64,000 bases of DNA from Paludibacteraceae bacterium (GTDB lineage Bacteria; Bacteroidota; Bacteroidia; Bacteroidales; Paludibacteraceae), in the NCBI GenBank assembly GCA_017478725.1, contig JAFVDD010000006.1:1169-65168 (forward strand), read 5' to 3'. The notes under the pieces are model-generated. The model did no database searches and was not told the origin of the DNA. It worked only from the letters and a program-made list of their open reading frames with translations. Of the stretch, positions 1,742-64,000 are shown in pieces (the first letter of the stretch is position 1; every line of letters starts with the position of its first letter). Both the position numbers and the translations under genes were made by a program.

Positions 1742-2124
1742 AAGTAAATAAGTTTTAAGTGGTGCCTACTCTTTGTCGGATTTTCGGCTTGCTCCGCAAT
1801 AAGGAGACATAAAAGAAAGCGGGACTGCATATTGCTGTTCCGCTTCATAGGGCTCTGGTATTGCCTTCACATCCGAACAAGCAACACGAGTCCACGCTGA
1901 ATATGTATCAGATACACGCCTATACCCAATGCTCCTGCTATGGATAAACAAGGAGCAAGCGTGAGAATACACACCCTCGGGACGCCTTGTGTTGCGATGT
2001 TTTGGATGTTGATGAATTTACCAGATTCTATGAAGCCAAAACAAAGCGTGTAAGACGCCTTTCATTATGTCTTGGATTTGTTCACCCTATAGTGGACCTA
2101 TAGCGATGAAATCAAATACGAGTG

Positions 2125-5101: not shown

Positions 5102-5131
5102 ATCCGGATTTCCAGATTTCCGGATCTCTAG
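5101..5131. repeat. period-8 degenerate array, ATTTCCGG family
   Basis: The units read aatccgg atttccag atttccgg atctctag. The array starts at the last base of the glgB stop codon. Confidence 0.85.
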
Positions 5132-5156
5132 AAATATAGTCAAAAACAATATAGAG

Positions 5157-9037: not shown

Positions 9038-9111
9038 TAGCGGGACCCAGGATTGAACTGGGGACCTCATGATTATGAATCATGCGCTCTAACCAGCTGA
9101 GCTATCCCGCC
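9038..9111 (-). tRNA. tRNA with CAT anticodon (Met; a lysidine-modified Ile2 cannot be excluded)
   Basis: The manual cloverleaf is: acceptor GGCGGGA/TCCCGCT, D arm GCTC-AGCTGGTTA-GAGC, anticodon stem CATGA/TCATG with loop TTCATAA, T arm CCCAG-TTCAATC-CTGGG. Total 74 nt. Confidence 0.9.
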
Positions 9112-11877: not shown

Positions 11878-11951
11878 CGGGGAGTGGCGCAGCCCGGTAG
11901 CGCAACGGTCTGGGGGACCGGAGGTCGCGTGTTCGAATCACGTCTCCCCGA
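11878..11951 (+). tRNA. tRNA-Pro (GGG)
   Basis: The manual cloverleaf is: acceptor CGGGGAG/CTCCCCG, D arm GCGC-AGCCCGGTA-GCGC, anticodon loop CTGGGGG (anticodon GGG, G37), T arm GCGTG-TTCGAAT-CACGT. Total 74 nt. Confidence 0.9.
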
Positions 11952-23142: not shown

Positions 23143-23174
23143 GTACAATGTGCGAATGTGCGATGTACAACTTG

Positions 23175-26100
23175 TTATTTTTTGGCAGAGGCTTTCGCTT
23201 CTGCTTTTTTGGCACGTGCCATCTGGATATCATAGGCTATCGGCGATGCGATGAACATGGACGACCATGTACCTACAATCACACCTACAAGCAGTGCAAA
23301 TACAAAGCCCTGAATCGTTTCGCCACCGAATACAAAGATTGCCAACAGCACTACGAATGTACTCATTGAGGTGGAGAACGTACGGCTGAGGGTATTGTTC
23401 AACGCATCGTTGATGTTCTGCTTGCGGTCACGTTTCGGATAGAGCTTGTTGTACTCGCGTACGCGGTCGAAGATAACCACGGTATCGTTGATCGAGTAAC
23501 CGATAACGGTCAGGATAGCAGCGATAAACGCTTGGTCGATCTCCATGGAGAAAGGCATGATCTTCCAAAGGATGGCATATAGACCCAGTACAATCACTGT
23601 ATCGTGTGCCAAGGCTGCCAATGCACCTACTGAGAAGGCAAAATTGCGGAAACGCAGCAGGATATAGAGGAAGATACCGAGCAGCGCAGCCACGACAGCC
23701 CAAACGGCGCTGGTGGTGATATCGTCTGCGATAGCCGGTCCTACTTTCTGGCTCGACATGATTCCTACGTTCGCGTTAGACTCGGTAGAGTGGAAATCCT
23801 CGAAGGTTATTTCATCGCCCAGGAACGGCTTGCAGCCTTCGAACAACAGACCCTCGATATACTCGTCTGCCTCAGCGTTATCTTCATGGATGCGGTAGTT
23901 GGTGGAGATACGTACCTGATTGGCGTCATTACCATAGGTGATAACGTTCAGACCAAAGGTCTCGCCGTCTTCCAGTGTGGCGCGTAAGGTGTTATCAAGC
24001 GACTCACGGACATCCTGGGTGTTGATGTTCCGGTCGAAACGAACGACATAGTTGCGTCCACCGGAGAAATCAATACCCAGATTCAGTTTGCCGAAGATAT
24101 GCGGTTCCAGACCCAGAATAGCGAAGATCACCAATGCGCCAGACAGGCAGTAAGCCCACTTGCGTGCGTTGATGAAATCGAAATGCATGTTCTGCAGGAA
24201 GTTCTGCATCAGCTTGGTGGTGAAACTCAGTTCCTTGGCGTTGTCCTTGGATGCATAATCCTCCAGAAGCAGACGGGTGATGAACACGGCTGTCAGGAAC
24301 GAAGAGATGATACCGATCATGTAGGTTACAGCGAAGCCCTTGATAGGACCGGTACCAAAGATAGCCAGAATAGCACCCGTCAGGAACGAGGTCACGTTGG
24401 CATCTACAATCGCGGTGATGGCACCCTTGAAACCGTCCTCGATAGCTTTGCGCATACCCTTGCCGCCGCGAAGCTCCTCACGTATACGCTCGTAAATCAG
24501 CACGTTGGCATCCACTGCCGTACCCATCGTCAGCACGATACCGGCAATACCCGGCAGGGTCAGCACGGCGGAGAACGAAGCTAAAATACCTAACAGCAGG
24601 AACACGTTGCATAGTAATGCAAAGTCCGCAATCAGACCCGGTATCCAGCCGTAATAGAAAATCATATAAATCAGGATAAGGCAGAAGCCCAGAGCGAATG
24701 ACCACAAACCGGACTGAATAGCCTCACGACCCAGCGACGGACCTACCACGCTCTCCTCGATGATGCGGGCGGGAGCCGGCATCTTACCGGATTTCAGAGT
24801 GTTGGCCAAGTCTTTGGCTTCTTCTACGGTGAAGTTACCGGTAATCTGGCTGTTGCCGCCGGCTATCTCGTTCTGCACCGTCGGGAAACTATATACAAAG
24901 CCGTCCAGTACGATGGCTACCGATTTGCCGATGTTGTCTTTGGTCAGACGCTGCCAGGTCTTTGCGCCCTCGGCGTTCATCGACATGGACACATTGGCAT
25001 ATGCGCTCAGCTGCGAGAAATCCGCACGGGCGTCGGTGATCACATCGCCTTCCAGCGAAGCACGACCGTCACGCTGTGCCTTCAGTGCTACCAACTGATA
25101 GTAACTGCCGGCCTCATCGATGGCTTTTACTGTCCAATAGAAACGTGCGTCACGAGGCAGAACGGCTTTTGCAATCTGCGAGTTCAGCATGGCGTTCACC
25201 TTGGCGGTGTCCGTGTAATGAACGGTACCTACTACCGGACCGCGGAAGGCCTGACCGGCCTGGTTGACCTGGGGATTCAGAATACCGAACAAGGGGTTCT
25301 GGCGTTTGTATTCAGCCAACTGTGCCTCTTGGTCGGCCTCAAGCGCTGCGCTGTCGCTGGCGAGGTTATCTACCAGTTCTGCCAACTCATCGCTCTCTGC
25401 CTTGGCGCTTTGTACATCGTTCTTTTGTACTTCTTTTGTGCTTTGTACTTCCTCGCTTTGTACATTGCTTGCGGCATACTCGCGGTTGATCTGAGCCAGC
25501 AACGGGAGGATCTCACTGTTCTCATAGGTCTCCCAGAACTCAAGGTTGGCGCTTCCCTGCAGAAGTTTACGGACACGCTCAGGCTCTTTGATACCCGGCA
25601 ACTCAATCAATATACGGCCCGGCTGTGTCAGCTTCTGGATGTTCGGCTGAACAACACCGAAACGGTCGATACGCGTACGGAGCACGTTGAAAGAGTTGTT
25701 GATGGCGCCGTCAACCTCCTCGCGGATAACACGCTCTACCTGATCGTTGGTTGAGTTCAGCGTTACTTTGTCTTTCAACTCGAAAGTGGAGAAAATAGAT
25801 GCCAACTGGGCATCCGGATCCACCTCTTTGTAGGATTCGATGAAAAGGGTAACGAAGTCTGCTCCGCTCGTTTTCTGCTTCTGGCGGGCACGAGCCATCG
25901 CCTCTTTGTAATTCGGCGTCTCGTTATGACCGCTCAAAGCGTCCAGAATGTCCGGAACAGACACTTCCATCGTTACGTTCATACCACCCTTGAGGTCAAG
26001 ACCAAGGTTGATCTCTTTCTCACGGCACTCTTTCAAAGTGTAGCCGAACCACACTTTCTTGGTCGCGATGGAATCAAGATACTGATACTCCTTGACTGCA

Positions 26101-30600: not shown

Positions 30601-30684
30601 ATGTTAATGTACATAGGGACGATGTACCATGTACGAAGAATGTCCCAATTTAAAATAAACAGACTTATAAAATCAACAGACGCA

Positions 30685-31977: not shown

Positions 31978-32010
31978 GAAGAAGTACGAAGGTACGATGT
32001 GCGAAAGGCA

Positions 32011-36538: not shown

Positions 36539-36730
36539 ATGAAGAAAATGCTTCTTATCGTAGCAGTTGCATTCGCTGCAATCAGCTGCTGCGGCAACAA
36601 GGGCGAGCAGAAATGTGCAGAGAAACAGTGCTGCAAAGACAGCGCTGCTGTATGCTGCCAGGCTGACAGTGCTAAATGTTGCGCTGACAGCGTAAAGGCT
36701 TGCTGTGCTGACACTACTCTGGCTGAGTAA
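36539..36730 (+). CDS. 63-aa cysteine-rich small lipoprotein (12 Cys, five CC pairs)
   Basis: It has its own promoter box, a signal peptide with lipobox AISC, and the periodic pattern CC-x6-8-CC. A strong terminator follows directly. The overlapping antisense ORF 36436..36744 has no such signals. Confidence 0.7.
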   Translation: MKKMLLIVAVAFAAISCCGNKGEQKCAEKQCCKDSAAVCCQADSAKCCADSVKACCADTTLAE

Positions 36731-36765: not shown

Positions 36766-36797
36766 AAGAAGCGACCCGTTCGGGCCGCTTCTTTTTG
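36766..36797 (+). terminator. rho-independent terminator
   Basis: The stem agaagcgaccc / gggccgcttct has one mismatch and is followed by TTTTT. Confidence 0.75.
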
Positions 36798-36801
36798 TAT
36801 T

Positions 36802-36841
36802 ACTAGTCAGCTAGTCAACTAGTCGGCTAGTCAACTAGTCC
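36802..36841. repeat. period-8 CTAG array (5 x CTAGTCNN)
   Basis: CTAG occurs at 36803, 36811, 36819, 36827 and 36835. The last unit supplies the gpmI stop codon. Confidence 0.95.
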
Positions 36842-38370
36842 TTGATCAGACACCGCCCCGTCATCTCTTCGGGCTGCTCGATACCCATGATATGGCAGAG
36901 CGAGGGTGCCACATCGGCGAGGATGCCGTTCTCCACCCGGGCGTTCTTATGATCGCGGCTGATATAGATGAACGGTACGGGGTTGAGCGAGTGCGCGGTG
37001 TTGGGTGTGCCGTCGGGGTTGATGGCATAGTCGCAGTTGCCGTGGTCGGCGATGACGATAATCTCATAGCCGTTCTCCAGTGCCGCCTCAATCACTTTGT
37101 GCGAGCATTCGTCAATCGTGCGCACAGCCTGCTCGATAGCCGTATAAACGCCGGTGTGCCCTACCATGTCGCCGTTGGCGAAATTGAGGGTGATATAGTC
37201 GAATTTCTGCGTTTGGATAGCCGCTACCAGTGCTTCGGTCACCTCGGGAGCGGACATCTCCGGCTTGAGGTCGTACGTAGGCACTTTGGGGCTGGGGATG
37301 AGGATGCGCTCCTCGCCCGGATACTCAGCCTCGCGGCCGCCGTTGAAGAAGAAAGTCACGTGGGCGAATTTCTCGGTCTCGGCGATGCGCAGCTGTTTCA
37401 TACCCAGACGGCTGACCACTTCGCCCAGCGTGTTCTCTACGTTCTCTTTGGGGAAGAGGATATGCAGGCCGGTGAACGAACTGTCGTACGGCGTCATGCA
37501 GCAGTAGTGCAAGCCCGGGATAGTGTGCATCCCTTGCTCGGGCATGTCTTGTTGCGTGAGTGCGATAGTAATCTCCTTGGCGCGGTCGTTGCGGTAGTTG
37601 AAGAAGATCACTACGTCGCCTTCGGCTATCCGTCCGTCGCAGGTGGCGTTGATGAGCGGCTCCATGAACTCGTCGGTGTCTTTATGCTCCTCGGTGTGGC
37701 GGTCGTAGCAGCCCTGTACGGCGGCTACCATGTCGGTCTCCTGACGTCCTGCGCCGTTCACCAGTTGGTCGTACGCCACTTTGATGCGCTCCCAGCGTTT
37801 GTCACGGTCCATGGCGTAGAATCGTCCGATGATAGAGGCTATGTGTGCGCCGTTGGCGTTGCATACCTGCTGCAGGTCGTTCACAAAACCCTTGCCGCTG
37901 CGCGGATCCGTGTCACGGCCGTCCATGAAACAATGGACGAACGTCCTGTCGGCTATGCCGTACTCTTTGGCGATCTCTACGAGTTTGAACAGATGATCAA
38001 GCGAACTGTGTACGCCGCCGGTGGAGCAGAGCCCCATCAGATGCAGTTTCTTGCCCTGAGCCTGCGCAGCCCGGTAGGCGGCGACAATCTCCGGGTTTTG
38101 CATGATCGAGTTGTCGCGAATCGAGCGGTTGATCTTCACCAGGTCCTGATACACCACGCGGCCGGCACCGATGTTCAGGTGTCCCACTTCGGAGTTGCCC
38201 ATCTGGCCGTCCGGCAGACCTACGTTCTCGCCGCTGGCTTGCAGTTGCGAGTGCGGATATGTCGCCAGCAGCGCGTCCCAATGGGGCGTAGGCGTGCAAT
38301 AAATCACATCCGCTTTGGTTTTATTTCCGATTCCCCATCCGTCGAGAATCATCAGTAATGCTTTACTCAT
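36835..38370 (-). CDS. gpmI: 2,3-bisphosphoglycerate-independent phosphoglycerate mutase
   Basis: 511 aa with the [19 protein letters not shown] and ADHGN motifs. Confidence 0.95.
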
Positions 38371-38432
38371 ATCTATAAATCTTAACAGTTTAACTATTTA
38401 ACGTTTCGATGTATCGAAACCATTTTAACTCT

Positions 38433-40127: not shown

Positions 40128-40553
40128 ATGACAAAGTTATCGGAAATATTAGCTATAACCGGCAAGCCCGGTTTGTACAAACTGGTCAGCCGCGGCAACA
40201 ACATGCTGATTGTGGAGAGTCTGGTGGACGGCAAACGTACGCCTACCTATGCCCGCGACAAGATTGTGGCGCTGAGCGATGTGTCGATGTTCACCAACGC
40301 CGATGATGTGCGCCTGAGCGAGGTGCTCACCTCCGCCGGCAAGAAAGAGGGGTTGCAGCCCGTGGCGATGGATCCCAAGAAAGCCGCCAACGCGGAGCTG
40401 CAGGCATGGTTTGACGAGGTGCTGCCCGACTGGGACCGCGACCGGGTCTATCCTTCGGATATCCGCAAACTGATCTCGTGGTACAACATCCTCGTGAAGG
40501 CCGGTATCACCGATTTCAGCCTGGAGGAAGAGCCCGCCGAAGAGGAAAAATAA
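40128..40553 (+). CDS. conserved hypothetical protein (DUF5606-like)
   Basis: 141 aa. The N-terminus ILAITGKPGLYKLVSRGNNMLIVESLVDGKRTPTYA matches my memory of this Bacteroidota family. Confidence 0.55.
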   Translation: MTKLSEILAITGKPGLYKLVSRGNNMLIVESLVDGKRTPTYARDKIVALSDVSMFTNADDVRLSEVLTSAGKKEGLQPVAMDPKKAANAELQAWFDEVLPDWDRDRVYPSDIRKLISWYNILVKAGITDFSLEEEPAEEEK

Positions 40554-40598
40554 CTAGTCAGCTAGTCAACTAGTAAACTAGTCGCCTAGTCAGCTAAA
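40553..40598. repeat. period-8 CTAG array (5 x CTAG + CTAA)
   Basis: CTAG occurs at 40554, 40562, 40570, 40578 and 40586, and CTAA at 40594. Confidence 0.95.
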
Positions 40599-40607
40599 AG
40601 AATACGT

Positions 40608-41540
40608 GTGCTCGTACGAGCAATCATTGATATCATAGAATCTGTAGCGCCACGGAGTGCCCAGGAGGAATGGGATAACTCGGGAATGCAGGTAGGTGAC
40701 ACGGGACAGGAGGTGAACTCCGTCCTCTTGACCACAGACGTTACGCCGGCTGTGGTCGATGAAGCCGTTAGGCTTGGTTGCCAACTTATCATCAGCCATC
40801 ATCCGCTTTTGTTCCACGGACTCAAACAGGTCTGCGGCCAGAGTGCGCAGGCGCAAGCGGTGGAGGCTTGTATCCGCCACGGCATAGCCGTCTATTCCGC
40901 CCATACCTCGCTCGACAGCGTCTGGGGCGGCATCAACACCCGTCTGGCTGACCTTCTCGGCATAACCGATTACCGCATCTTAGTGCCAAAACCGGGGGCC
41001 CCGCGAAACGCTAACGAAGCGATGTTTCGTGGGGAGAGCGGAGGCACAAGTTGCTTTAATGACCGCGCGGCGGTCAGTCCTTGCAACCTTGTTGCCGAAC
41101 GCGAAGGTCTCGGTATCATCGGCTCTTTACCCGCCCCCATGGATTTTCACTCCTTTTTAGTACACGTGCGCGACACGCTCGGTGCCACGTACGTGCGCTA
41201 CACACTCCCAACTCCTTTAAGGGAGGGGTCTATGGTAGGCTTTCTCCCCTCCTTGCAGGGAGGGGGCGGGGGTAGGCTTGTTACCACCGTCGCCCTCTGC
41301 GGAGGCAGCGGAGCGGAGTTTATAGGCGAGGCAATAGCCCAAGGCGCGGATGTCTATATTACCGCCGATTGCAAGTACCATGAGTTTCAGGACGCCGGCG
41401 GCAAAATAGCTCTCGTTGATATTGACCACTGGGTGAGCGAGAGGCATTGCCGCGAGATCTTCCGCGATTTGCTGACGCCCCACGGCATCGACTGCCGCAT
41501 CAGCCAAGCCGACCAAACACCGATACAAGTATTACAATAA
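40608..41540 (+). CDS. Nif3-like dinuclear metal centre protein (YbgI/GTP cyclohydrolase 1 type 2 family)
   Basis: 310 aa with a GTG start at 40608. The motifs are EEWDNSG, ISHHPLLF, ALCGGSG, TADCKYHEF and DHWVSE. Confidence 0.8.
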   Translation: MLVRAIIDIIESVAPRSAQEEWDNSGMQVGDTGQEVNSVLLTTDVTPAVVDEAVRLGCQLIISHHPLLFHGLKQVCGQSAQAQAVEACIRHGIAVYSAHTSLDSVWGGINTRLADLLGITDYRILVPKPGAPRNANEAMFRGESGGTSCFNDRAAVSPCNLVAEREGLGIIGSLPAPMDFHSFLVHVRDTLGATYVRYTLPTPLREGSMVGFLPSLQGGGGGRLVTTVALCGGSGAEFIGEAIAQGADVYITADCKYHEFQDAGGKIALVDIDHWVSERHCREIFRDLLTPHGIDCRISQADQTPIQVLQ

Positions 41541-42724: not shown

Positions 42725-42732
42725 TATCTTTG
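42725..42732 (+). promoter_or_regulatory. -7 box TATCTTTG for the giant surface-protein gene
   Basis: TAnnTTTG match with an A-run upstream, 110 nt before the first ATG at 42842. Confidence 0.6.
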
Positions 42733-42763
42733 CACGCTATTTTTGATATGCGCGCCCAAAATT

Positions 42764-42808
42764 ACTAGTCAGCTAGCAAGCTAGAAACCTAGTCAGCTAG
42801 TCAACTAC
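42764..42808. repeat. period-8 CTAG array in the 5' leader of the giant gene
   Basis: CTAG occurs at 42765, 42773, 42781, 42789 and 42797, then CTAC at 42805. Confidence 0.95.
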
Positions 42809-55152: not shown

Positions 55153-55202
55153 GACAGGCACACCCGCTAAAACGACAAAGCTCGCCCGCTAAAACGAAAA
55201 GA

Positions 55203-55227
55203 CTCGCCTCAACGGGCGAGCCTTTTC
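55203..55227 (+). terminator. rho-independent terminator after the GH105 gene
   Basis: The stem ctcgcc-tcaacg-ggcgag is followed by CCTTTTC. Confidence 0.6.
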
Positions 55228-55230
55228 ATT

Positions 55231-55251
55231 ACTAGTCAGCTAGTCAACTAA
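55231..55251. repeat. short period-8 CTAG array (CTAG, CTAG, CTAA)
   Basis: CTAG occurs at 55232 and 55240, and CTAA at 55248. The last unit is the stop codon of the minus-strand OMP gene. Confidence 0.9.
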
Positions 55252-57215
55252 AACCTGAACGTTGCTCCCACCAGGAAATTGATACCCTGGGAGGTGTAGC
55301 CGTAATAGATGTCGTTCTTGTAGTGAATGAAATTGTTCACTTGGGCAAAGAGCGTCAGGTTGGGCTTGGGCTCCGGGCGGAGCGGTAACTCCCCGCCCTC
55401 TGAGTGCTGATGGCTTACAGCTGAACGCTTACCTCCTACCCACATGTTATACTGCATGCCGAGATCCAACTCTACGGTAGGTTTGAGCAAGTGCTCGCCA
55501 TCCGTCGCCAGCGCCAGACGGCTGCCGGCAAAATGGTTGTCGGAATAGAGCGACCAGTGCTTGTCTATCTTCCCGTCCACGCGCAGGCCTAACTGCCAGT
55601 TGGCATGGTCATATACAGTGCGGCTGTTGTTGGCAAGAACATCGGTGAGTTCCGTGCAAGTGGAGGCGTACTGATAGCCGTTGTTCTCATAGCGCAGGGC
55701 ACGCCAGAAATAGTAGTCCCCGTACAGGTTGACGCGTACGATATCACGATAGTGGTAGTTGAACTGGGCTCCCACCTTTCCGCGGCTGTAGTCGCAATAG
55801 GTATAACTGAAATCGCCGGCATGCACAAAAGCATTGAACGCCGCTGGCATATAGCGTGCGCTGTCGGTCACGGCAATGAGGGTGGTGGTGTTCAGATAGA
55901 GAGCGTAGCCTCCGTGGAGCTCGATGAGCAGGTCGCGGTAGGGCCGTATATGGAAGCCCAGTTCGGCATCCACCGGCGTATGCGGCGCTGCGTGGTGGGA
56001 GATGATACCTGCATGGATAACACGGTAGCGGTTCTGCTCCATGAACGCCTGCAACGTACCCATGGCGTGGGAGCCGGTGGCGTCGGCATAGAGCGTGAGC
56101 CATTTCTTGGCTATCTGCGCCTCCAGATGCACATGAGGCGACGGGGCAAAACTGAGGTTGTTGACGCCGGAGAGGCTGTTCTGGCCGCGACCTATGTTCA
56201 TATCCAGATTGACGCCCACGTGGAGCTGCACGCGACGGCTGTTGTAGGCATAATAGGGTTCCAGACGGATATTATGGCGGCTGTTGTACATCGTGGAGGG
56301 AATAGTTGCCGCCAGATTGCCGTTCAGGCTGAGGAAATTGTTCTGCACATAGAGTACGGCTCCTACGTGGTGGAAATCACGGCTCCAGTCGAACGACGCA
56401 TGTGTACGTATCTGGTGCTCGGCTACGGCATTGGGTTTGGCAAAGAGCATATAGCCTGTCTGCACGCGGTACTGCACCTCCTGTTTGGCGTTGGAGCGGA
56501 CACCTATATAGGCCTCTGCGGTCCAGAGGGAGGTCTGGTCGGCAGGGGTGATAGTGCGCGGCTCGGGATAGAGCGTTTTGGTGCGATCCCATGCGCCGGC
56601 ACTGCCTTGTGCGTAGTCGTAGAAACGGCCGTATTTGTTGTAGAACACATTGCCGCCGTTGATGCCGAAATAGACGCTGCAAGCGGAGAACGGGTGGGAG
56701 AAATCAAAACCGAGCTTGGTTTTGCTGAGTGCTCTGAGTCCCCATTGGGCACGATGATGGGCATACACGTCCAGTATGGAGCGTTTGCCGTCGTCCAGAC
56801 GGTAGCCGAAATCAAAGAGCGTGTTCGTGTGTCCCAGTCCGCCGCGTACGTAGCCGTTGTAGGACTGGCCTTCGCCGAATCGTGTGGGCTGAGAGAGCAG
56901 TGGCTGCAAGCCGGTTTCTGTTTTCACCTCTACGGCATAGTTGGAATAGCTGACCTCAACCGGCTCAATAGTTGTTTCCACGATAGCGGGTTTGGTAGCC
57001 ACCTTGCCGGCTGCCCGGATGACAGGCTGGAAATCACGCTCTACCGTCACGGAGCGGTTGAGTGCACTGTCGCTCTGCGCCGAAGCAGGAGTAAGGAATA
57101 AGGACAATGGAATAAGGACAAAAATGTATCGGCTGATAGTATTCGCTCTTTTGTCTTTCAGCGAAGCGGTCTTTATTCTTTCAGCGAAGCGGTCTGTATT
57201 ACTCGTCATCATCAT
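55248..57215 (-). CDS. large outer-membrane beta-barrel protein (putative porin-like; no TonB plug recognised)
   Basis: 655 aa with a signal peptide ending PASAQS, alternating aromatic/Gly-rich strands throughout, and the C-terminal OMP signature GATFRF. It overlaps the upstream TPR gene by 17 nt. Confidence 0.65.
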   Translation of the reverse strand: MMMTSNTDRFAERIKTASLKDKRANTISRYIFVLIPLSLFLTPASAQSDSALNRSVTVERDFQPVIRAAGKVATKPAIVETTIEPVEVSYSNYAVEVKTETGLQPLLSQPTRFGEGQSYNGYVRGGLGHTNTLFDFGYRLDDGKRSILDVYAHHRAQWGLRALSKTKLGFDFSHPFSACSVYFGINGGNVFYNKYGRFYDYAQGSAGAWDRTKTLYPEPRTITPADQTSLWTAEAYIGVRSNAKQEVQYRVQTGYMLFAKPNAVAEHQIRTHASFDWSRDFHHVGAVLYVQNNFLSLNGNLAATIPSTMYNSRHNIRLEPYYAYNSRRVQLHVGVNLDMNIGRGQNSLSGVNNLSFAPSPHVHLEAQIAKKWLTLYADATGSHAMGTLQAFMEQNRYRVIHAGIISHHAAPHTPVDAELGFHIRPYRDLLIELHGGYALYLNTTTLIAVTDSARYMPAAFNAFVHAGDFSYTYCDYSRGKVGAQFNYHYRDIVRVNLYGDYYFWRALRYENNGYQYASTCTELTDVLANNSRTVYDHANWQLGLRVDGKIDKHWSLYSDNHFAGSRLALATDGEHLLKPTVELDLGMQYNMWVGGKRSAVSHQHSEGGELPLRPEPKPNLTLFAQVNNFIHYKNDIYYGYTSQGINFLVGATFRF

Positions 57216-60174
57216 TTACCTCCTTTTCTGCGGGTTGTTCTATCTTGTCCAGTTTGGCGAGACGGTCGCTGATGAGTGCGGGTATATCATCGCCGGTGAT
57301 GGTGTAGTTCTGCTGTAGTGCGAGCAGGTACTGGCGCGCCTGGAATGTCTCGCCGCGGCGGGTGTATATATCGCTCAGCAGGATGAGTGCGCGTGCGAGC
57401 CAGTATTGCTGGCTGGTGCTCATGCCGGTGAACGACATCACCTCTGCTTCCGCCTCGTCAAGCTGACCTGACTCAAACCGGCTTTGTGCCAGCAGGTATT
57501 TGGCTTCGGCGCCCTGCGCTGTGCGTACCTCGCTGGACAGCTGTTTGAGGTCCGGCTGGGCTTTCTCCCATTCGCCTTGAGCCGTATAGGCTTTGGCGCG
57601 GCAGTAGAGCGCTTCGTTGCGCACTGCCTCGTCCGGCTGGTCGTTCAGCAGTTGGCCGGCTATGTCGATAGTAGCCGTATGGCGTCCCAGCAGTGATGAG
57701 CAGCGCAGGATACCTACGCGGGCCACGATACTGTTCTCGCGGGTGGACGCCAGTGCGTTCATGCGATAGAAAGCCTCCAGCGCCGCTGCGTAGTCTCCGC
57801 GGTCGTAGTAGATCTCTGCCATACGTGTGGCTGCTTCCTCCTGATAGGGATTGGCTGCGAGATCAGCCAGCTGGCTGTATTGCTCCAATGCTTCCGCATT
57901 TCTGCCCAGGCGGTAATACGAGTCGGCAAGATAGTAGAGAGCCGTGGTGCAGTATCTGCCTCCGGCACAGTAACGCCGTATATATTCGCTCAGCGGCTCC
58001 GTGGCTTTCTGATATGCCGCCTGCATATACTGCATCTCTGCGGCGGCAAAGAGCAGGCTGTCCTCGCGTGTAGTGACGGTCATATTCAGTTTGGCGAGAT
58101 TCTTGGTATAGGCGAGGTACTCGTCTATACGGTTTTGCTCCACATACAGGGCCTGCAGGGTCTCCAGCGCCGTGTAGGCCTCCTCTGTAGCCGGATATTT
58201 CTCTATGGTCTGGCGGTAGGCGGCTATAGCCTGGTCGGTCTGGTTGAGGTTGCGGTAGAGCATTGCGCGCTCCAGCGAGGCCTTGCGGGCAAGGGCGGAG
58301 TGGGGATAGGTGTTGAGCAGTTGCTCATAGGTGGTGATAGCTCCGCGCTCGTCGTTGAGCTGAAGTTGCGCACGCGCTGTCTCATACATACCGTCGTCGG
58401 CATAGTCGGATTTGGGATAACGGGTGGTCAGGGTGCGCAGCGCTGCTATCTTGTCGTTGTATTGGCGCAGCAGACCCAGTGCATAGCCGCGCTGGAAGAG
58501 CGCATAGTCGGCTCCTACGGCCTGGAGGTTGCTTACCTGGGTGTAATAGCTGATAGCCTGTTTGAAATCACGGGCGTTGAAATAGCAATCGCCTATACGG
58601 TTGAGCGCATCGGCATAAGTGGCATCGCCCGTATCGGCTCCGTCTATATAGGTGGTGAAAGCTGTGCGTGCCTGATCGTAATGGTTTTGCGAGAAAGCGC
58701 AGTAGCCTTCCAGGTAGCGCGCTATCCGGTAGTTGGCCGATTGCTTGGCGTCATGGCGGGCGAAGAAGGACTGCAGGTCGCTCTCGCATGCGCTGTAGTC
58801 ACGCAGACGGTATTCCGCTTCGGCACGTATATAGAGTGCCTCGGTGGTGTAGCGGTCGCTCTCGTTACGGTGGCTGACCACTTCGCCTGCGCGGTCAATA
58901 GCCTGCTGCATCTTGCCTTGCAGAAATCCGTCGGCTGCCAGTTGGTAGCGCAGATACTGCTTGGTCTCCAGCATCTTGGGAGTGGGGTCGGAGATACTGT
59001 CCAGCGTGGCAATGGCTGCAGCGTAGTTCTTGCTTTGCATCAGCGCCGAACTCAGCAACTGGTAGATATTGCTCTCGTATTTGGAATCAGGAAAAGCATG
59101 CAGGAAATCATTGAACGCCTTGACCGACTCGCCCAAAGCCGACGAAGAACGATAGGAGCAGAGGGTGTAGTTGTAGGCAGCCTCCTCGGTGATAGCAGGC
59201 GTGAGGCGGTAGCTGGCGGCAGCCTGATACCACAGCTGTGCCTGCTCGGGTTGGTTCATATGGATATAGGCATGACCGATGGTCAGGCAGGCCGACTCGC
59301 TCAGCGTGTCCGGCTGCTGTTTGATCAGTTTCAAATGGCGGATGGCGTCCGGATAGCGGTTCAGTCTGTACTCGGCATGACCGAGCAGGTACAGGTCCTC
59401 GCGCCGCAACTCCTCCTTGCGCTCCTGAGCGTCCTGTTCGTATTGCTGCAACTGCTCAGCCGCCTCTTCGTAGCGCCCGTCGCGATAGCGTATCTCGCCC
59501 AGCATACGGTGCAGCTCGCCGGATAAATCATTGTCCGGCTGGGTGCGCAGCAGCATGACAATACGCTCCTCCGCCTCATCATAGCGTCCCTGGATATAGT
59601 CGGTCTGCGCGATGAAATAGGGCACAGTCTTGGCGTATTCGGGCATCTGCTCCAGACGCTTGAGTGAAGGCAAAGCCTTGTCGTACTCGCCCGTTTTGTA
59701 CATACAATAGGCGTAGTAATAGTCGGCGCGGGTGGAATAGCGGTTGTCGGATTTGGACAGATGACCGAAATAGATAGCCGCCCGCCCGTAGTCCTGCAGC
59801 ATCAGATAGGAGTAGCCGCGATAGAAGGAATAGTCGTGCTGGTGAGCCCGTCCGAGTGCGCTGATGTCAATAGGCTCCAGTACCTTGAGGGCTTGTTTGT
59901 AATGACCGCGCTCTACCTGCAGTATTCCCTGCATCAGATTGACTTCGTCGGCAAACGTGGTGTAGGGAAACTCCTGCATATAGGCCTTCAAATCGCGCTG
60001 GAGCACCGAGGTGTTGCCGCTACGGCTGTCAAAACGCTCTGCCAGTGCGTTGTAGCGCACTTCCATCTCCGTCGTCTGCGCGAAAGCTCCGCTTAATGGC
60101 AAAAGATAAAAGACAATCGACAGGACGATATGACGACATGTCGATATGTCGAAAAACTTAGTTAGTAATGTCAT
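57199..60174 (-). CDS. 991-aa secreted multi-TPR protein (YbgF/CpoB-like repeats)
   Basis: A signal peptide is followed by TPR-type A..Y.....Y..A periodicity along the whole length. Its ATG overlaps the potD stop (ATGA at 60171-60174). Confidence 0.7.
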   Translation of the reverse strand: MTLLTKFFDISTCRHIVLSIVFYLLPLSGAFAQTTEMEVRYNALAERFDSRSGNTSVLQRDLKAYMQEFPYTTFADEVNLMQGILQVERGHYKQALKVLEPIDISALGRAHQHDYSFYRGYSYLMLQDYGRAAIYFGHLSKSDNRYSTRADYYYAYCMYKTGEYDKALPSLKRLEQMPEYAKTVPYFIAQTDYIQGRYDEAEERIVMLLRTQPDNDLSGELHRMLGEIRYRDGRYEEAAEQLQQYEQDAQERKEELRREDLYLLGHAEYRLNRYPDAIRHLKLIKQQPDTLSESACLTIGHAYIHMNQPEQAQLWYQAAASYRLTPAITEEAAYNYTLCSYRSSSALGESVKAFNDFLHAFPDSKYESNIYQLLSSALMQSKNYAAAIATLDSISDPTPKMLETKQYLRYQLAADGFLQGKMQQAIDRAGEVVSHRNESDRYTTEALYIRAEAEYRLRDYSACESDLQSFFARHDAKQSANYRIARYLEGYCAFSQNHYDQARTAFTTYIDGADTGDATYADALNRIGDCYFNARDFKQAISYYTQVSNLQAVGADYALFQRGYALGLLRQYNDKIAALRTLTTRYPKSDYADDGMYETARAQLQLNDERGAITTYEQLLNTYPHSALARKASLERAMLYRNLNQTDQAIAAYRQTIEKYPATEEAYTALETLQALYVEQNRIDEYLAYTKNLAKLNMTVTTREDSLLFAAAEMQYMQAAYQKATEPLSEYIRRYCAGGRYCTTALYYLADSYYRLGRNAEALEQYSQLADLAANPYQEEAATRMAEIYYDRGDYAAALEAFYRMNALASTRENSIVARVGILRCSSLLGRHTATIDIAGQLLNDQPDEAVRNEALYCRAKAYTAQGEWEKAQPDLKQLSSEVRTAQGAEAKYLLAQSRFESGQLDEAEAEVMSFTGMSTSQQYWLARALILLSDIYTRRGETFQARQYLLALQQNYTITGDDIPALISDRLAKLDKIEQPAEKEVNDDDE
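60118..60157. repeat. period-8 array, CGACATGN family (5 units), inside the 5' end of the TPR gene
   Basis: The units read cgacagga cgatatga cgacatgt cgatatgt cgaaaaac. They are translated as FFDISTCRHIVLS. Confidence 0.9.
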
Positions 60175-61418: not shown

Positions 61419-61450
61419 TGCAGTAAATTATTTATTGTTTTTGTTTTGTT

Positions 61451-61497
61451 TTATCTGTTATCTGGTTATCCGGAATTCTGGAAATCCGGCATTCTAA
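61451..61497. repeat. period-8 array, ATTTCCGG family (6 units)
   Basis: The units read ttatctg ttatctgg ttatccgg aattctgg aaatccgg cattctaa. The last unit contains the potC stop codon (61494-61496). Confidence 0.85.
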
Positions 61498-62849
61498 TTC
61501 TTCTTATCCTTGTCTGCTCTTATATTGATGACGATGAGCACGGTCAGCATAACGAGCAGAATGATGGTGAATAGCGGCCTCAGTTCGGGCGTCAGACCTC
61601 CCTTGCGGGCATCGGAATAGATGAAGGTACTCAGCGTCTCCAGTCCGCCGCTGCCTTTGGTGAAGAAGGTCACGCCGAAATCATCTACCGAGAGTGTCAG
61701 TGCGAGTATGAATCCTGATAGCATACCCGGCCACAACTCCGGCAGCATCACCATCCTGAGCGCTTGCGCAGGTGTGGCGCCGAGGTCCAGTGCCGCCTCG
61801 TAGGTATTGGGGTTCATCTTGCTGAGCCGCGGCAGTACGCTGAGTACAACGTACGGCGTACAGAATACCACATGCGCAATACATACGGTCGCCAATCCCT
61901 GGCTCATACCCAATGCTACGAATAGCAGGAAGAGTGATATACCCGTAATGATATCCGGATTGATCATCGGCACGGAGTTGAGGAAACTGACTACTTTGCG
62001 CTGACGGGCACGCATGTTATAGATGCCTATCGCCGCCAATGTACCCAAGAGGGTGGAGCAGACCGCCGCAATGAGGGCGATGACTACGGTGTACCAGATG
62101 GCACTGTTGAGACCCGCACCGGCATGACCGGTAAAGAGATTGGCATACAGGTTCATGGAAAATCCTGTCCAGTTGCCCAGCACCTTGCTTTCCGTGAACG
62201 AGAATACGGCAATCAGGGCGATAGGTGCGTACAGCACAATGAGCAGCAGCCATAGATACAGCTGCGAACCTATATGTCTCCGGTTGCCCATCCGCTTGCG
62301 TCGTAGTGTCTCCTGTTCTACGGCCGGCAACTCACGCTCTTTCCTGCGACGGCGGACCACCATGCCAGCATACACGATACCCGTTGCCAGCAGCAGGCCG
62401 GAGAACACAAACCATATCCAGCCGTAGCTGCGGCTGACGGATGTCTGTTCGCGGACGTACTGCTCAAACACGTCATAGGCGTTCTGTACCAAAACGCGCT
62501 TCGTACGGTTGCGAGGGATGGCATTTGTCCTCCATACTACCCATTCGCAGTTGTTCTCGTCGGTGTAACTATAGATACTGTCGCACCATGTACCCAACTC
62601 GTCTATGGGCCTGTTGGCAAATACATAGTCCAGCGAGTCCTGAAAGCGGAAAGCCGATTGCTGAATGCGGATATTCACTTTCTCCGCCGCATATGTATCG
62701 GGAAACTCGTCCAGCAATGTGACGGTCCCCGTTGCAGCTACCTTCAGTTCGTACGTCAGGTTCGACTGGGCAGAAGCACTCAAGCTGAGCAATATTACTA
62801 TCGACATGACGACATGACGACATGACGATATGTCGAAAAATCTTTTCAT
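61494..62849 (-). CDS. potC: ABC transporter permease PotC fused to a 186-aa N-terminal signal-peptide + extracytoplasmic domain + TM segment
   Basis: 451-aa ORF. Residues 187-451 (ATG at 62289-62291) form a normal-length PotC with a binding-protein-dependent permease core. Residues 1-186 have no stop separating them from PotC. The ATG at 62847-62849 overlaps the potB stop (ATGA). Confidence 0.75.
   Translation of the reverse strand: MKRFFDISSCRHVVMSIVILLSLSASAQSNLTYELKVAATGTVTLLDEFPDTYAAEKVNIRIQQSAFRFQDSLDYVFANRPIDELGTWCDSIYSYTDENNCEWVVWRTNAIPRNRTKRVLVQNAYDVFEQYVREQTSVSRSYGWIWFVFSGLLLATGIVYAGMVVRRRRKERELPAVEQETLRRKRMGNRRHIGSQLYLWLLLIVLYAPIALIAVFSFTESKVLGNWTGFSMNLYANLFTGHAGAGLNSAIWYTVVIALIAAVCSTLLGTLAAIGIYNMRARQRKVVSFLNSVPMINPDIITGISLFLLFVALGMSQGLATVCIAHVVFCTPYVVLSVLPRLSKMNPNTYEAALDLGATPAQALRMVMLPELWPGMLSGFILALTLSVDDFGVTFFTKGSGGLETLSTFIYSDARKGGLTPELRPLFTIILLVMLTVLIVINIRADKDKKN
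62802..62841. repeat. period-8 array, CGACATGN family (5 units), inside the 5' end of the potC fusion ORF
   Basis: The units read cgacatga cgacatga cgacatga cgatatgt cgaaaaat. They are translated as FFDISSCRHVVMS. Confidence 0.9.
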
Positions 62850-63640: not shown

Positions 63641-63654
63641 TGTTGTTCTGGTTT

Positions 63655-63684
63655 TCTAGTTGACTAATTGGCTAGTCGGCTAGT
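63655..63684. repeat. period-8 CTAG array (CTAG, CTAA, CTAG, CTAG)
   Basis: CTAG occurs at 63656, 63672 and 63680, and CTAA at 63664. The CTAG at 63672 supplies the potA stop, so PotA ends ...KLAD encoded by the array. Confidence 0.9.
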
Positions 63685-64000
63685 TTGTTGATTAGTATCT
63701 CCTTCGGTGGAATGACTATACCTACGCGGTCGCCGTCGTCCCATACATCGTTGGTGTTGACATACAGGTCGTGGCCTTCGTCCGTACGGATGGTCAGTTG
63801 GTAGTGATTGCCCTTGTATAGGATGAAATGTACCTCGCCGGACAGTTTGCCTTCTTCCTCGTAGTCCTGCAGGTCAATCGAGCGGAAGGGAACACGCACT
63901 TGCACTTTCTCGCCTGCCTCCATACCTTCTGTCTGTTTCGGCATCACTTCCCATTCGGCATCTATAAACCGCACTTTGCCGTTTTTGAGCACTTCTCCCT
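63672..64000 (-). CDS. potA: spermidine/putrescine ABC transporter ATPase PotA, C-terminal (TOBE-like) part; gene continues past the window end
   Basis: The reading frame stays open to position 64000, and the track's M is an internal GTG. The beta-rich regulatory domain sits upstream of potB, potC and potD in the canonical order. Confidence 0.7.
   Translation of the reverse strand, partial: GEVLKNGKVRFIDAEWEVMPKQTEGMEAGEKVQVRVPFRSIDLQDYEEEGKLSGEVHFILYKGNHYQLTIRTDEGHDLYVNTNDVWDDGDRVGIVIPPKEILINKLAD

Follow-up and report, generated by a model that had tools for sequence, protein, structure and literature searches.

One question raised by this locus is why a genome from which the tetranucleotide CTAG has nearly been eliminated keeps it in tandem arrays beside its genes, and whether these arrays have a role there. 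The window, i.e. the whole stretch of 64,000 nt analysed here, belongs to a member of the Paludibacteraceae (Bacteroidales) from gut or rumen. It contains 22 CTAGs, where a Markov model predicts about 127 and the base composition about 249, and the observed/expected ratio of 0.17 is the lowest among the 16 palindromic tetramers of the window. Twenty of the 22 are found inside five arrays and 2 elsewhere, while across 81 kb of the source genome 24 of 28 CTAGs are array-borne. The pattern (CTAGN4)x3+CTAG matched 6 times in the window and not once in each of 100 dinucleotide-preserving shuffles. Likewise, a scan of the window with CTAGTCARCTAGTCAR, allowing up to 3 mismatches, gave 17 matches versus 1.1 expected, which were confined to the five array loci. 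The first-pass annotation had regarded CTAG as avoided and its clustering as unlikely to be chance; indeed, the clustering in arrays far exceeds chance, and every array stands out because the remainder of the genome has hardly any CTAG. The five loci are unlinked and spread over 27 kb, and a sixth array is located in the same genome 2.1 kb beyond the window end. The arrays and the signals next to them are as follows.

36768..36797 (+): intrinsic terminator hairpin, GAAGCGACCCGTTCGGGCCGCTTC followed by TTTTTG, belonging to a small Cys-rich ORF (36539-36730)
36798..36842 (+): array 1, ATTA followed by CTAGTCAG CTAGTCAA CTAGTCGG CTAGTCAA CTAGTCCT
40550..40605 (+): array 2, (A)TAA stop followed by CTAGTCAG CTAGTCAA CTAGTAAA CTAGTCGC CTAGTCAG CTAAAAGA and ATAC
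42725..42732 (+): TAtcTTTG promoter motif, about 32 nt upstream of array 3
42760..42808 (+): array 3, ATTA followed by CTAGTCAG CTAGCAAG CTAGAAAC CTAGTCAG CTAGTCAA and CTAC
55203..55226 (+): intrinsic terminator, CTCGCCTCAACGGGCGAG followed by CCTTTTCATT, directly before array 4
55227..55254 (+): array 4 (short), ATTA followed by CTAGTCAG CTAGTCAA CTAAAACC
63652..63687 (-): array 5, reverse orientation and degenerate, reading CTAGCCGA CTAGCCAA TTAGTCAA CTAGAAAA on the - strand

Reading the sequence at all five loci showed the period-8 units that had been described for them, and in the three long arrays five CTAGs each, 8 nt apart, at the expected starts (36803/11/19/27/35; 40554/62/70/78/86; 42765/73/81/89/97; the other arrays have theirs at 55232/40 and 63656/72/80). 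The locus at 63655-63684 differs in being degenerate and oppositely oriented; Tandem Repeats Finder (TRF) called period 8 at the four other arrays with 2.5-5.6 copies, whereas this fifth one comprises 4 degenerate units. Array 1 is flanked on one side by the 3' end of gpmI (-) and on the other by the terminator of the small Cys-rich ORF (+), a hairpin 5 nt before the array that is kept in sister species directly after the gpmI stop. The gpmI stop (36835-36837) is provided by the fifth CTAG of this array, and the last 'unit' consists of the final gpmI codons (K-D-stop). Array 2 is placed exactly between the TAA of a DUF5606/DUF6852 gene and the GTG start (40608) of a NIF3 gene. Array 3 would belong to the 5' UTR of a gene for a 3397-aa protein with Flg_new repeats (ATG 42842) and is found 34 nt upstream of the start codon and 327 nt past the nearest upstream ORF. 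The TAtcTTTG at 42725 presumably corresponds to TAnnTTTG, the -7 promoter motif of Bacteroidetes, and its position upstream of the array makes it probable that array 3 belongs to a transcribed leader. Array 4 directly follows the intrinsic terminator of a GH88 gene (+), and its degenerate CTAA unit supplies the TAG stop (55248-55250) of a convergent 655-aa ORF. The first TAG of array 5 (63672-74) is the stop of a potA-like ABC ATPase, and the ATG of a permease (63640) follows 15 nt past its last CTAG. Hence, all three stop codons that had been ascribed to arrays are array-supplied; the naming of the 655-aa ORF as a porin-like outer membrane protein found no support, since this ORF has no Pfam match. 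A SusC/SusD identity for the 991-aa and 655-aa ORFs was also discarded, because Pfam gave faint TPR matches for the former and none for the latter. An Rfam scan over the window returned 2 tRNAs and a DUF805b motif only, and no Rfam family matched the arrays.

The arrays are no assembly artefacts. Two ENA metagenome assemblies (L001, L002) contain identical copies of arrays 1-3, and array 5 recurs unchanged in three contigs of three assemblies (L187-L189), in line with the expectation that real arrays should return in independent assemblies. The contigs carrying arrays are 99.99-100% identical to the window and thus come from the same strain; the copy number is constant across all assemblies found, a constancy within one strain in which variation is not detectable.

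The first-pass annotation had read the arrays as devices that stop translation entering from either side. The geometric part of this claim is correct: repeating CTAG with a period of 8 places stops in all three frames of both strands, and in every one of the five arrays all six frames contain a stop codon. Moreover, the stop of a gene is abutted or supplied by the array at 5 of the 6 arrays of the source genome. However, a sequence with stops in six frames cannot sit inside an ORF, so that boundary location and stop supply are forced outcomes and no evidence of function. The same logical point on stops and location has been made for the TAACTGA repeats (MacGregor 2015, PMC4679880). The statement that all arrays sit at gene boundaries is therefore true of the arrays and without functional weight, and the proposed refutation, i.e. 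arrays being as frequent inside ORFs, cannot fail as a test because the stops bar them from ORFs. The arrays are placed outside ORFs at the stop, in the gap between stop and start or in the leader, and an abutting array becomes the stop of its ORF.

A comparison of orthologous junctions, which had been suggested as a check, was more informative. In sister Paludibacteraceae, whose gpmI is 83-91% identical, the array junctions are empty, with TAA followed directly by GTG or by the terminator, and no CTAG arrays were found in about 115 kb of sister-species DNA (L167-L173, L182, L183), the orthologous junctions included. The window has TAA, a 52-nt array and GTG where TAA and GTG are adjacent in the sister locus L168, and the C-terminus LIKD of gpmI is kept, with the array TAG in place of TAA/TGA. 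The arrays are thus lineage-specific insertions made directly at a stop codon or in the gap that separates it from the next start, and the empty orthologous sites reveal the exact insertion point. Since the sister junctions are empty, the genes work without an array, and any function of the arrays is dispensable. The arrays are not the ends of a mobile element, a possibility already raised in the annotation, since what separates them is a set of housekeeping genes with conserved synteny in relatives (gpmI, smpB, CNNM, DUF5606, NIF3). MITE or insertion-sequence termini were also rejected for lack of target duplications, none being present at the insertion junctions in comparison with L168; no terminal inverted repeats were seen at the array junctions, and neither a transposase family nor a RAYT transposase occurs among the Pfam domains of the genes called on about 53 kb of the source genome (L001/L002, L184, L187, i.e. 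genes outside about 11-31 kb of the window).

The consensus unit CTAGTCAR, composed of a palindromic (A/G)CTAGT core and a 2-nt spacer, is present in 3-6 copies per array. In RNA form, five tandem copies of the unit read (CUAGUCAA)5. A purine occupies position 8 in 24 of the 28 units, by which each CUAG helix would reach 6 bp in RNA. The core is far better kept than the spacer, with mismatches at 4 of 112 CTAG positions versus 24 of 84 TCA positions (p=7e-7); the difference persists for interior units only (1/64 versus 8/48, p=0.005) and in the comparison across species (0/16 versus 3/12), while in the arrays of all taxa the flanking units keep CTAG no better than TCA. Arrays 1 and 4 have 23 identical nt at their 5' ends, 16 of which are also found in array 3, the common 5' end of the copies being ATTA-CTAGTCAGCTAGTCAACTA; array 2 has the 22-nt core ACTAGTCAGCTAGTCAACTAGT in common with other arrays, and arrays 1-4 display a common G/A alternation between units. 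The identical 5' ends suggest copying and not local slippage, which is also disfavoured because the units are imperfect. Distinctive for the arrays are the palindromic CTAG/ACTAGT core kept more than the spacer, a predicted imperfect hairpin and the extreme degree to which CTAG is concentrated in them.

Intergenic arrays of short hepta- and octanucleotides have reportedly been known since the cyanobacterial STRR heptamers of Mazel in 1990. The CTAG arrays have a unit within the 5-11 nt and at least 3 copies typical of this class, recur at unlinked loci, occur sporadically in single lineages and vary by whole units. With STRRs, and with the 'long simple sequence repeats' of prokaryotes (Mrazek 2007, as far as that work is cited in PMC4679880), they have in common that they form dispersed, non-coding, lineage-specific tandem families of 7-8 nt with whole-unit copy changes; STRRs differ by the cyanobacterial phylum, another unit and often longer arrays, and neither a palindromic core nor a CTAG concentration is known for them. 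The closest likeness in habit is to the TAACTGA repeats, a 7-nt unit in 2-6 copies, almost all intergenic, which has from dozens up to hundreds of loci in a genome and is found sporadically in taxa that include Bacteroidetes and also in Paludibacter propionicigenes; a translational role has been proposed for it, most copies point forward to a nearby start, and some overlap the upstream stop (MacGregor 2015, PMC4679880), an overlap due to the stops that the forward repeat has in three frames. Both kinds are intergenic, mostly point toward the start, may overlap the upstream stop and have a unit that is not a multiple of 3. The TAACTGA unit, however, is non-palindromic with predicted unstructured RNA, and its reverse orientation is open (LSVISYQ) and occurs inside ORFs, whereas the CTAG octamer is self-complementary, has stops on both strands and resides in a genome otherwise nearly free of its core tetramer. 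Judged by their units (CTAGTCAR versus TAACTGA), the CTAG arrays resemble the TAACTGA repeats in kind without being the same family.

In Geobacter metallireducens, families of 16-49 loci are known in which a unit of 7-8 nt (GTTGCTYN, MTYCTGA, GGACCGG) is repeated four or five times in tandem, and the octanucleotide sites were annotated as putative global regulator sites (PMC2700814); they have other motifs, often form opposite-strand pairs and are in part intragenic. The earlier statement that no described element of such design was known is thus contradicted by the TAACTGA and Geobacter families. REP/BIME elements (PMC3733652) are similar as imperfect palindromes of about 40 nt, able to form a hairpin, at extragenic 3' ends and intercistronic sites, in either orientation, lineage-specific and probably transcribed, and differ in that the CTAG arrays are tandem octamers and not a unique stem-loop. 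A REP-like stem-loop is indeed predicted by minimum free energy (MFE) for the arrays, with a palindromy that stems solely from the CTAG cores, and GTAG or CGTC tags (GTAG/CTAC- and CGTC/GACG-types examined) do not consistently flank them. A literature search for the exact repeat sequences returned as its only match an unrelated plant W-box probe. The CTAG arrays are a variant of the short intergenic tandem repeat class and not a new kind of element.

This assignment agrees with the other repeats of the source genome, in which further junctions hold different 7-8 nt arrays (TCCGGATT, AAATTAC, ATGTCGNC and others). Several of these siblings lack stops in some frames, and the unit CGACATAT at an equivalent junction is stop-free in both orientations. 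Of the 28 period-7/8 TRF matches, 19 fall in intergenic DNA or less than 100 nt from the first ATG of an ORF, which together make up ~8% of the window. The generalisation that all period-8 arrays have a palindromic tetramer core is only partly true, being followed by units with CTAG, CATG, TTAA and TCCGGA/TCTAGA and broken by CGAC, AATGGACG, TGAAAAC and GTGAAAG. Outside the source genome, CTAG arrays occur sporadically in metagenome-assembled genomes of other Paludibacteraceae and Bacteroidales. In two other Bacteroidales species of about 85% identity (L049 and L125), an array is retained at the orthologous junction with a 16-nt (two-unit) indel. In L170 and L183 the spacers that hold arrays in the window are filled with 15-16-mers and 47-nt units, respectively. 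A scan of metagenomes with the 20-mer core gave 8 matches, none of them from the species of the window. Some cross-genome arrays mix CTAGTCAA with TTGGTCAA; the heptamer TTGGTCA is a described cyanobacterial STRR unit. A universal cross-phylum CTAGTCAN element was considered, as a genome scan gave at least 119 loci, spread over many phyla and about 80 genomes, and was rejected. The motif is found at 10 loci in viral contigs, where control octamers have 7 and 10, and since the controls are equally frequent the cross-phylum matches look like generic octamer background; in other phyla the orientation is unbiased (11:11 and 14:16, from crude gene calls), and CTAG is not specifically conserved in these arrays. 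We read the cross-phylum CTAGTCAN arrays as independent lineage-specific expansions. The looser pattern (CTAGN4)x5 matched 45 loci in viral contigs, all unrelated octamer minisatellites with other spacers and uninformative here.

What the arrays could do as RNA is suggested by their predicted folding and their orientation. The three long arrays have predicted MFE values between -13.1 and -16.8 kcal/mol; the z-scores, between -3.4 and -4.0, are partly trivial in that shuffling breaks the CTAG palindromes. An unstructured leader, as a reading, was dropped because the arrays are predicted to fold. At co-directional gene pairs of the source genome, 4 of 4 arrays are in sense and end 1-34 nt before the start; at loci 5 and 6, i.e. 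two of these four, the first unit supplies the upstream stop, and array 2 starts directly after TAA. In the sixth array the predicted helix pairs the CUAG of the stop codon with the CUAG beside the AUG. A tally by hand over Bacteroidales gave about 12 sense versus 3 antisense arrays (binomial p=0.035), and antisense arrays between co-directional genes do exist (L177/L178, L106).

The reading that we favour, with a confidence somewhat short of even, is a dispersed, STRR-like, lineage-specific repeat, any role of which would be exerted by a hairpin transcribed at 3' ends and at junctions between cistrons. Array copies with a common 5' end were inserted recently into the source genome, and owing to their six-frame stops copies can persist only outside ORFs. 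The arrays would be transcribed within mRNAs, in Bacteroidales probably mostly read in the direction of transcription, and, because CUAG is self-complementary, they may fold into an imperfect hairpin whose helices of 4-7 bp alternate with 2x2 internal loops. Where the flanking genes are co-directional, the 5' arm would contain the upstream stop, and the downstream start would follow 1-18 nt past the 3' arm. A terminating ribosome would then have to melt the hairpin, and this melting could serve to couple the following cistron translationally or to tune its translation, while at 3' ends the hairpin could serve as a REP-type stabiliser. Arrays 1 and 4 are located between convergent genes beside a good terminator, and a coupling role makes no sense there. 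On this reading, six-frame termination sets where the element survives and is a side benefit at most, not its reason.

A strong rival, which we consider less probable than the favoured reading, is a neutral or selfish repeat that arises by slippage, gene conversion or transposition-like seeding, is purged by selection from ORFs and has no function. It accounts well for the lack of arrays at the same junctions of sister species, for spacers that each lineage fills with unrelated repeats of its own, for the many unrelated 7-8 nt arrays of the source genome, for a frequency in viral contigs not above that of control octamers and for the boundary location forced by the stops. It explains less readily that the CTAG core is far better kept than the spacer, both within the genome and across two species, and this in a genome with 2 CTAGs outside the arrays of the window versus about 127 expected. 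The imperfect units with their common G/A alternation are unlike fresh slippage products, and the sense bias in Bacteroidales and the array retained between two species of about 85% identity also speak against it.

Tandem palindromes with this period are also known as protein targets. The MetJ repressor reads a palindromic box in 2-5 tandem copies with 8-bp period, TrpR reads ACTAGT-NN-ACTAGT with cores 8 bp apart, and the ring oligomers HutP and TRAP read spaced UAG triplets in RNA. It is conceivable, and in our opinion unlikely, that an oligomerising factor of the MetJ/TrpR type on DNA or of the HutP/TRAP type on RNA reads (A)CTAG(T) every 8 nt; if so, with CTAG so scarce elsewhere, the arrays would serve as a genome-wide address of high specificity. 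Their (A/G)CTAGT cores every 8 bp, the palindrome and the 2-6 copies resemble the met-box and trp operators in architecture, a conserved core with a freely varying spacer is what such binding would leave, 24 of 28 CTAGs being in arrays is in accordance with it, and both orientations are found, as expected of a palindromic site. However, no candidate protein was identified, and the known cases are single operators or attenuators of specific operons with a known protein, whereas the arrays are many. About 6 arrays in 81 kb imply that a genome has hundreds of them, more than a repressor dedicated to an operon would need. Moreover, 4 of 5 arrays are located at 3' ends or in intercistronic spacers and array 3 about 32 nt past the promoter motif, so that promoters are not overlapped; sister species do without arrays, and a palindromic DNA site does not require the sense bias of Bacteroidales. 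A wider version, in which the (A/G)CUAGU arrays, as the address of an oligomeric factor or as self-folding coupling hairpins, build a genome-wide post-transcriptional cistron-to-cistron translation network in Bacteroidales that have no Shine-Dalgarno sequences, with the six-frame stops as integral part, we regard as just as improbable.

Least likely of these, by a small step, is the original proposal of six-frame translational insulators selected to stop ribosomes in any frame and from either side at gene boundaries. To our knowledge, Bacteroidetes have no Shine-Dalgarno-guided initiation, so that stray ribosomes at junctions could matter, and the conserved CTAG core does carry the stop; yet position and stop supply are logical consequences of the sequence, and between co-directional genes there is no translation for the stops on the antisense strand to end. 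No translation enters array 3, which a promoter motif precedes and which lies 327 nt past the closest ORF upstream, sister species keep bare TAA-GTG and TAA-terminator junctions, and sibling arrays include stop-free units such as CGACATAT. Moreover, backup stops are under weak selection, which would not hold an identical 20-23-mer at several loci. Among simpler classes, an intrinsic terminator was rejected since the arrays are followed by CCTTGA, AAAAGA, CCCGAG or AAACCT and the terminator scan finds a hairpin at 55203 and none in the arrays, and a CRISPR-like repeat, a DNA uptake sequence and a replication-polar motif were rejected on anatomy, the GC skew across the window being uninformative.

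For the favoured repeat with a possible hairpin role, the palindromic core provides a testable structural prediction, namely a hairpin joining the upstream stop to the downstream start. In practical terms, gene callers end ORFs in CTAG arrays, and assemblers may collapse them. If a role in coupling or mRNA stability holds true, the arrays would bear on operon expression in Bacteroidales that initiate without Shine-Dalgarno sequences; if no role is found, they would be a good marker of a mutational process by which repeats are seeded.

The five period-8 CTAG arrays proposed in the first-pass annotation are present at all of their loci when the sequence is read at each, and every array carries at least one stop codon in all six reading frames. 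With a GC content of 51.7%, the window contains only 22 CTAGs in total, whereas a first-order Markov model predicts about 127 and base composition about 249. The O/E of 0.17 is the strongest depletion among the palindromic tetramers in the window; the trinucleotide TAG is not avoided (676 copies). The five arrays account for 20 of the 22 CTAGs, at intervals of exactly 8 nt. Period-8 runs of four CTAGs occur six times versus none in 100 dinucleotide-preserving shuffles, and the two-unit consensus with up to three mismatches has 17 matches, at array loci only, versus 1.1 expected. In the window, the avoidance of CTAG and its non-random clustering are well supported. The presence in other assemblies, proposed earlier as a check, was found as well: two metagenome assemblies carry arrays 1-3 with unchanged sequence, and three contigs do so for array 5; hence the arrays are no assembly artefacts. 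These contigs match the window at 99.99-100% identity and are therefore uninformative on array polymorphism.

The arrays of this genome are located as follows:
36802-36841, plus strand: array 1, flanked by a terminator hairpin and the end of gpmI
40553-40598, plus strand: array 2, preceded by the TAA of a DUF5606/DUF6852 gene and followed by the GTG at which a NIF3 gene starts
42764-42808, plus strand: array 3, ending 34 nt ahead of the ATG that starts a 3397-aa gene, with a promoter motif upstream
55231-55251, plus strand: array 4, after a detected terminator, giving a convergent ORF its stop
63655-63684, reverse orientation: array 5, reaching from the stop of potA to 15 nt short of a permease ATG
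2.1 kb beyond the window end: a sixth array, occupying the whole stop-to-miaA spacer

The first TAG of the sixth array is the upstream stop, and the miaA ATG lies 1 nt past its last CTAG. When NIF3 is read from the GTG at 40608, the extension represents a typical NIF3 N-terminus and the Pfam profile is matched from position 1. TAnnTTTG motifs, which we take to be the typical Bacteroidetes promoter motif, recur across the window. Arrays indeed supply the stops of gpmI, the 655-aa ORF and the potA-like ABC ATPase, but the label "porin-like" for the 655-aa ORF was not kept, as it has no Pfam match. The closest named gpmI relatives are from Paludibacteraceae MAGs. Convergent with gpmI lies a small, seemingly unannotated ORF (36539-36730, plus strand), with a promoter motif and a terminator of its own, for a Cys-rich lipoprotein-like peptide of 63 aa (MKKMLLIVAVAFAAISCCGNKGEQKCAEKQCC...); in the sister species locus L168, a 50-aa gene called downstream of gpmI is equivalent by position alone. 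Two longer direct repeats were also noted, a 22-nt unit CCCGCTAAAACGAAAAGACTCG in 2.1 copies (55163-55208) past the GH88 stop and ahead of the terminator beside array 4, and a 23-nt unit in 2.3 copies (57147-57200) close to the start of the 655-aa ORF. Rfam matches at gathering score in the window comprise a DUF805b RNA motif and two tRNAs (1763-1797 (-), 9038-9111 (-), 11878-11951 (+)).

The comparison of orthologous junctions, also suggested before, was done with loci of relatives that share 83-91% identity in gpmI. Their CTAG is likewise depleted (2-7 per 6-21 kb versus 9-37 expected), and no intergenic CTAG array occurs in about 115 kb of their DNA. At the DUF5606/NIF3 junction of L168, TAA and GTG abut, whereas 52 nt of array lie in between in the window; at the gpmI 3' junction, L168 and L182, another sister-species locus, have TAA and then the terminator, whereas the array is interposed in the window. 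The gpmI C-terminus LIKD is the same as in L182 and in the sister-species locus L170, with the array TAG substituting TAA/TGA. Neither target duplication nor inverted termini are visible at the compared junctions. By these comparisons, the arrays are recent insertions placed at stop/start junctions. They are not the ends of a mobile element, because the genes between them are housekeeping genes syntenic in the relatives. Equivalent spacers in sister lineages hold unrelated repeats of their own. The only period-8/9 CTAG cluster in the relatives' DNA comprises five CTAGs in L168 (6414-6452; CTAGTGAAC CTAGGGGC CTAGGGGTT CTAGGGATC CTAG), apparently within the NIF3 coding region, which is odd given the CTAG depletion.

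The four plus-strand arrays share a common 5' start, ATTA or ATAA followed by CTAGTCAGCTAGTCAACTA, as well as the G/A alternation, and diverge only toward the 3' end; judged by this pattern, they are probably copies of one sequence rather than products of local slippage. Among the six arrays, mismatches affect 4/112 CTAG positions versus 24/84 positions of the following TCA (p=7e-7), and in interior units only 1/64 versus 8/48 (p=0.005). In two other Bacteroidales species, an array is kept at one orthologous stop-to-start junction with flanks 85% identical; it shows a 16-nt (two-unit) indel and changes at 0/16 CTAG versus 3/12 spacer positions. The arrays represent a dispersed, lineage-specific family of palindrome-cored octamers, in which the CTAG core is unusually conserved, in a genome otherwise almost CTAG-free.

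Tandem 7-8 nt arrays at gene boundaries are a general habit of this genome. Nineteen of 28 period-7/8 TRF hits fall in sequence that either lies between genes or is no more than 100 nt from the first ATG of an ORF; such sequence makes up approximately 8% of the window. Other junction array units are TCCGGATT, AAATTAC, ATAATTG, AATGTGCG, TGAAAAC, TTATCTGG and the ATG-containing ATGTCGNC family, and several of these siblings are free of stop codons in at least one orientation. The dispersed ATGTCGNC family (62802-62836, 60118-60152, 2911-2947; unit given for the reverse strand) has period 8 and an ATG or CATG in each unit. In two ORFs unrelated to each other, a copy directly follows the first ATG; one ORF is annotated with an ABC-permease domain (BPD_transp_1), the second encodes 991 aa with faint TPR hits. 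Both copies encode the near-same peptide KFFDIS(S/T)CRH(V/I)V(M/L)SIV, which means either that translation really starts further downstream or that a DNA repeat was recruited as N-terminal (signal-like) coding sequence. The two-locus family TCCGGATT/TCCAGATT (5103-5140 (+), 61440-61490 (-)) repeats the palindromic hexamers TCCGGA/TCTAGA every 8 nt, with its two copies in opposite orientations and both in stop-to-start spacers, and includes the CTAG at 5128, one of the two non-array CTAGs. Period-8 ATGTRCGA/GTACGA units occupy three short spacers (23143-23175, 30601-30650, 31978-32010), and in the SmpB-gpmI spacer (38371-38432 (-)) GTTAAANN octamers with a TTAA core and period 8 flank the perfect hairpin GGTTTCGAT-ACA-TCGAAAC.

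Scanned for CTAGTCANCTAGTCANCTAG, 185,579 species genomes gave at least 119 loci; the matches listed cover, by our own count, about 80 genomes from many phyla, with 5-10 loci each in, for example, Ca. Hadersleviella, one Chloroflexota MAG, one Hyphomicrobiales MAG and Acidobacteriota MAGs, and include several Paludibacteraceae and Bacteroidales MAGs. We read the cross-phylum matches as a probable octamer-array background plus independent lineage-specific expansions, since control octamers are as frequent (viral contigs: 10 loci versus 7 and 10 for controls) and arrays outside Bacteroidota show neither orientation bias nor special retention of CTAG; one conserved element was rejected on the same grounds. 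Bacteroidales arrays are mostly oriented along transcription (about 12 sense versus 3 antisense, p=0.035, a hand tally including this genome) and typically span from a TAA/TAG stop to 0-40 nt from the next ATG. In Chloroflexota (Ca. Hadersleviella, Caldilineaceae and others; loci L085, L104, L105, L128, L132, L133, L149 and others), (CTAGTCAG)n is regularly followed by a CCAAAAAG-like linker and (GCTGAART)n; this partly self-complementary composite, with many loci per genome, looks like a distinct REP/MITE-like family. In the Hyphomicrobiales MAG (L066, L076, L088, L117, L143, L150), CTAGTCAG units continue straight into GCTAGAGG/GCTAGATA octamer arrays, making it a second genome that tandemly joins several different CTAG-containing octamers.

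The exact array sequences were found in no relevant paper of our literature search and in no Rfam family. However, the kind of element is already described, contrary to the initial statement, for example as TAACTGA repeats and Geobacter octanucleotide families. The TAACTGA heptamers (2-6 copies) are nearly all intergenic, mostly aimed at a start codon a few nucleotides off, and are sporadically distributed among Cyanobacteria and among Bacteroidetes, Paludibacter propionicigenes being one carrier; a role in translation through S1, Csp or CsrA-like proteins is a proposal only (MacGregor 2015, PMC4679880). Families of four or five tandem hepta-/octanucleotides in the Geobacter metallireducens genome are regarded as putative global regulator sites (PMC2700814), and a Nostoc preprint describes effects on reporters for heptamer repeats near start codons. 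REP elements share the hairpin and the extragenic habit, but have GTAG/CGTC tags and RAYT partners, neither of which was seen with the CTAG arrays.

As RNA, the arrays are predicted to form imperfect hairpins with 4-7 bp helices and 2x2 internal loops, owing to the self-complementary CTAG and to a purine at position 8 of 24/28 units. The long arrays have MFEs of -15.6, -13.1 and -16.8 kcal/mol (z -3.4 to -4.0, but shuffling trivially breaks palindromes), and in the sixth array the CUAG with the upstream stop is predicted to pair with the CUAG adjoining the downstream AUG. They are not intrinsic terminators, because none of them is followed by a U-tract. Our leading, still tentative reading is that the arrays are transcribed within mRNAs and act, if at all, as such hairpins, which at intercistronic junctions might couple or tune how the following cistron is translated, while those at 3' ends might work REP-like. 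A neutral or selfish repeat is a strong, somewhat less probable rival. It is improbable that the arrays are binding sites for a putative oligomeric protein; architectural parallels, to be taken as leads only, are the MetJ met boxes (8-bp tandem palindromes, 2-5 copies), the trp operator (ACTAGT-NN-ACTAGT) and the UAG-repeat RNA sites of HutP/TRAP. The gene-boundary position and the supply of stops, on which the six-frame insulator was based, are true; however, six-frame stops by themselves explain where arrays survive and why they donate stops, hence they are no evidence for stopping translation as the selected function. The array-free sister species, the location of array 3 in a leader and the sibling arrays without stops all speak against the insulator, which is the least probable explanation. 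The first-pass observation is thus confirmed, and its interpretation is supported in part. The CTAG arrays are valuable as a particularly clean model of short intergenic tandem repeats, a class that has long lacked an explanation.
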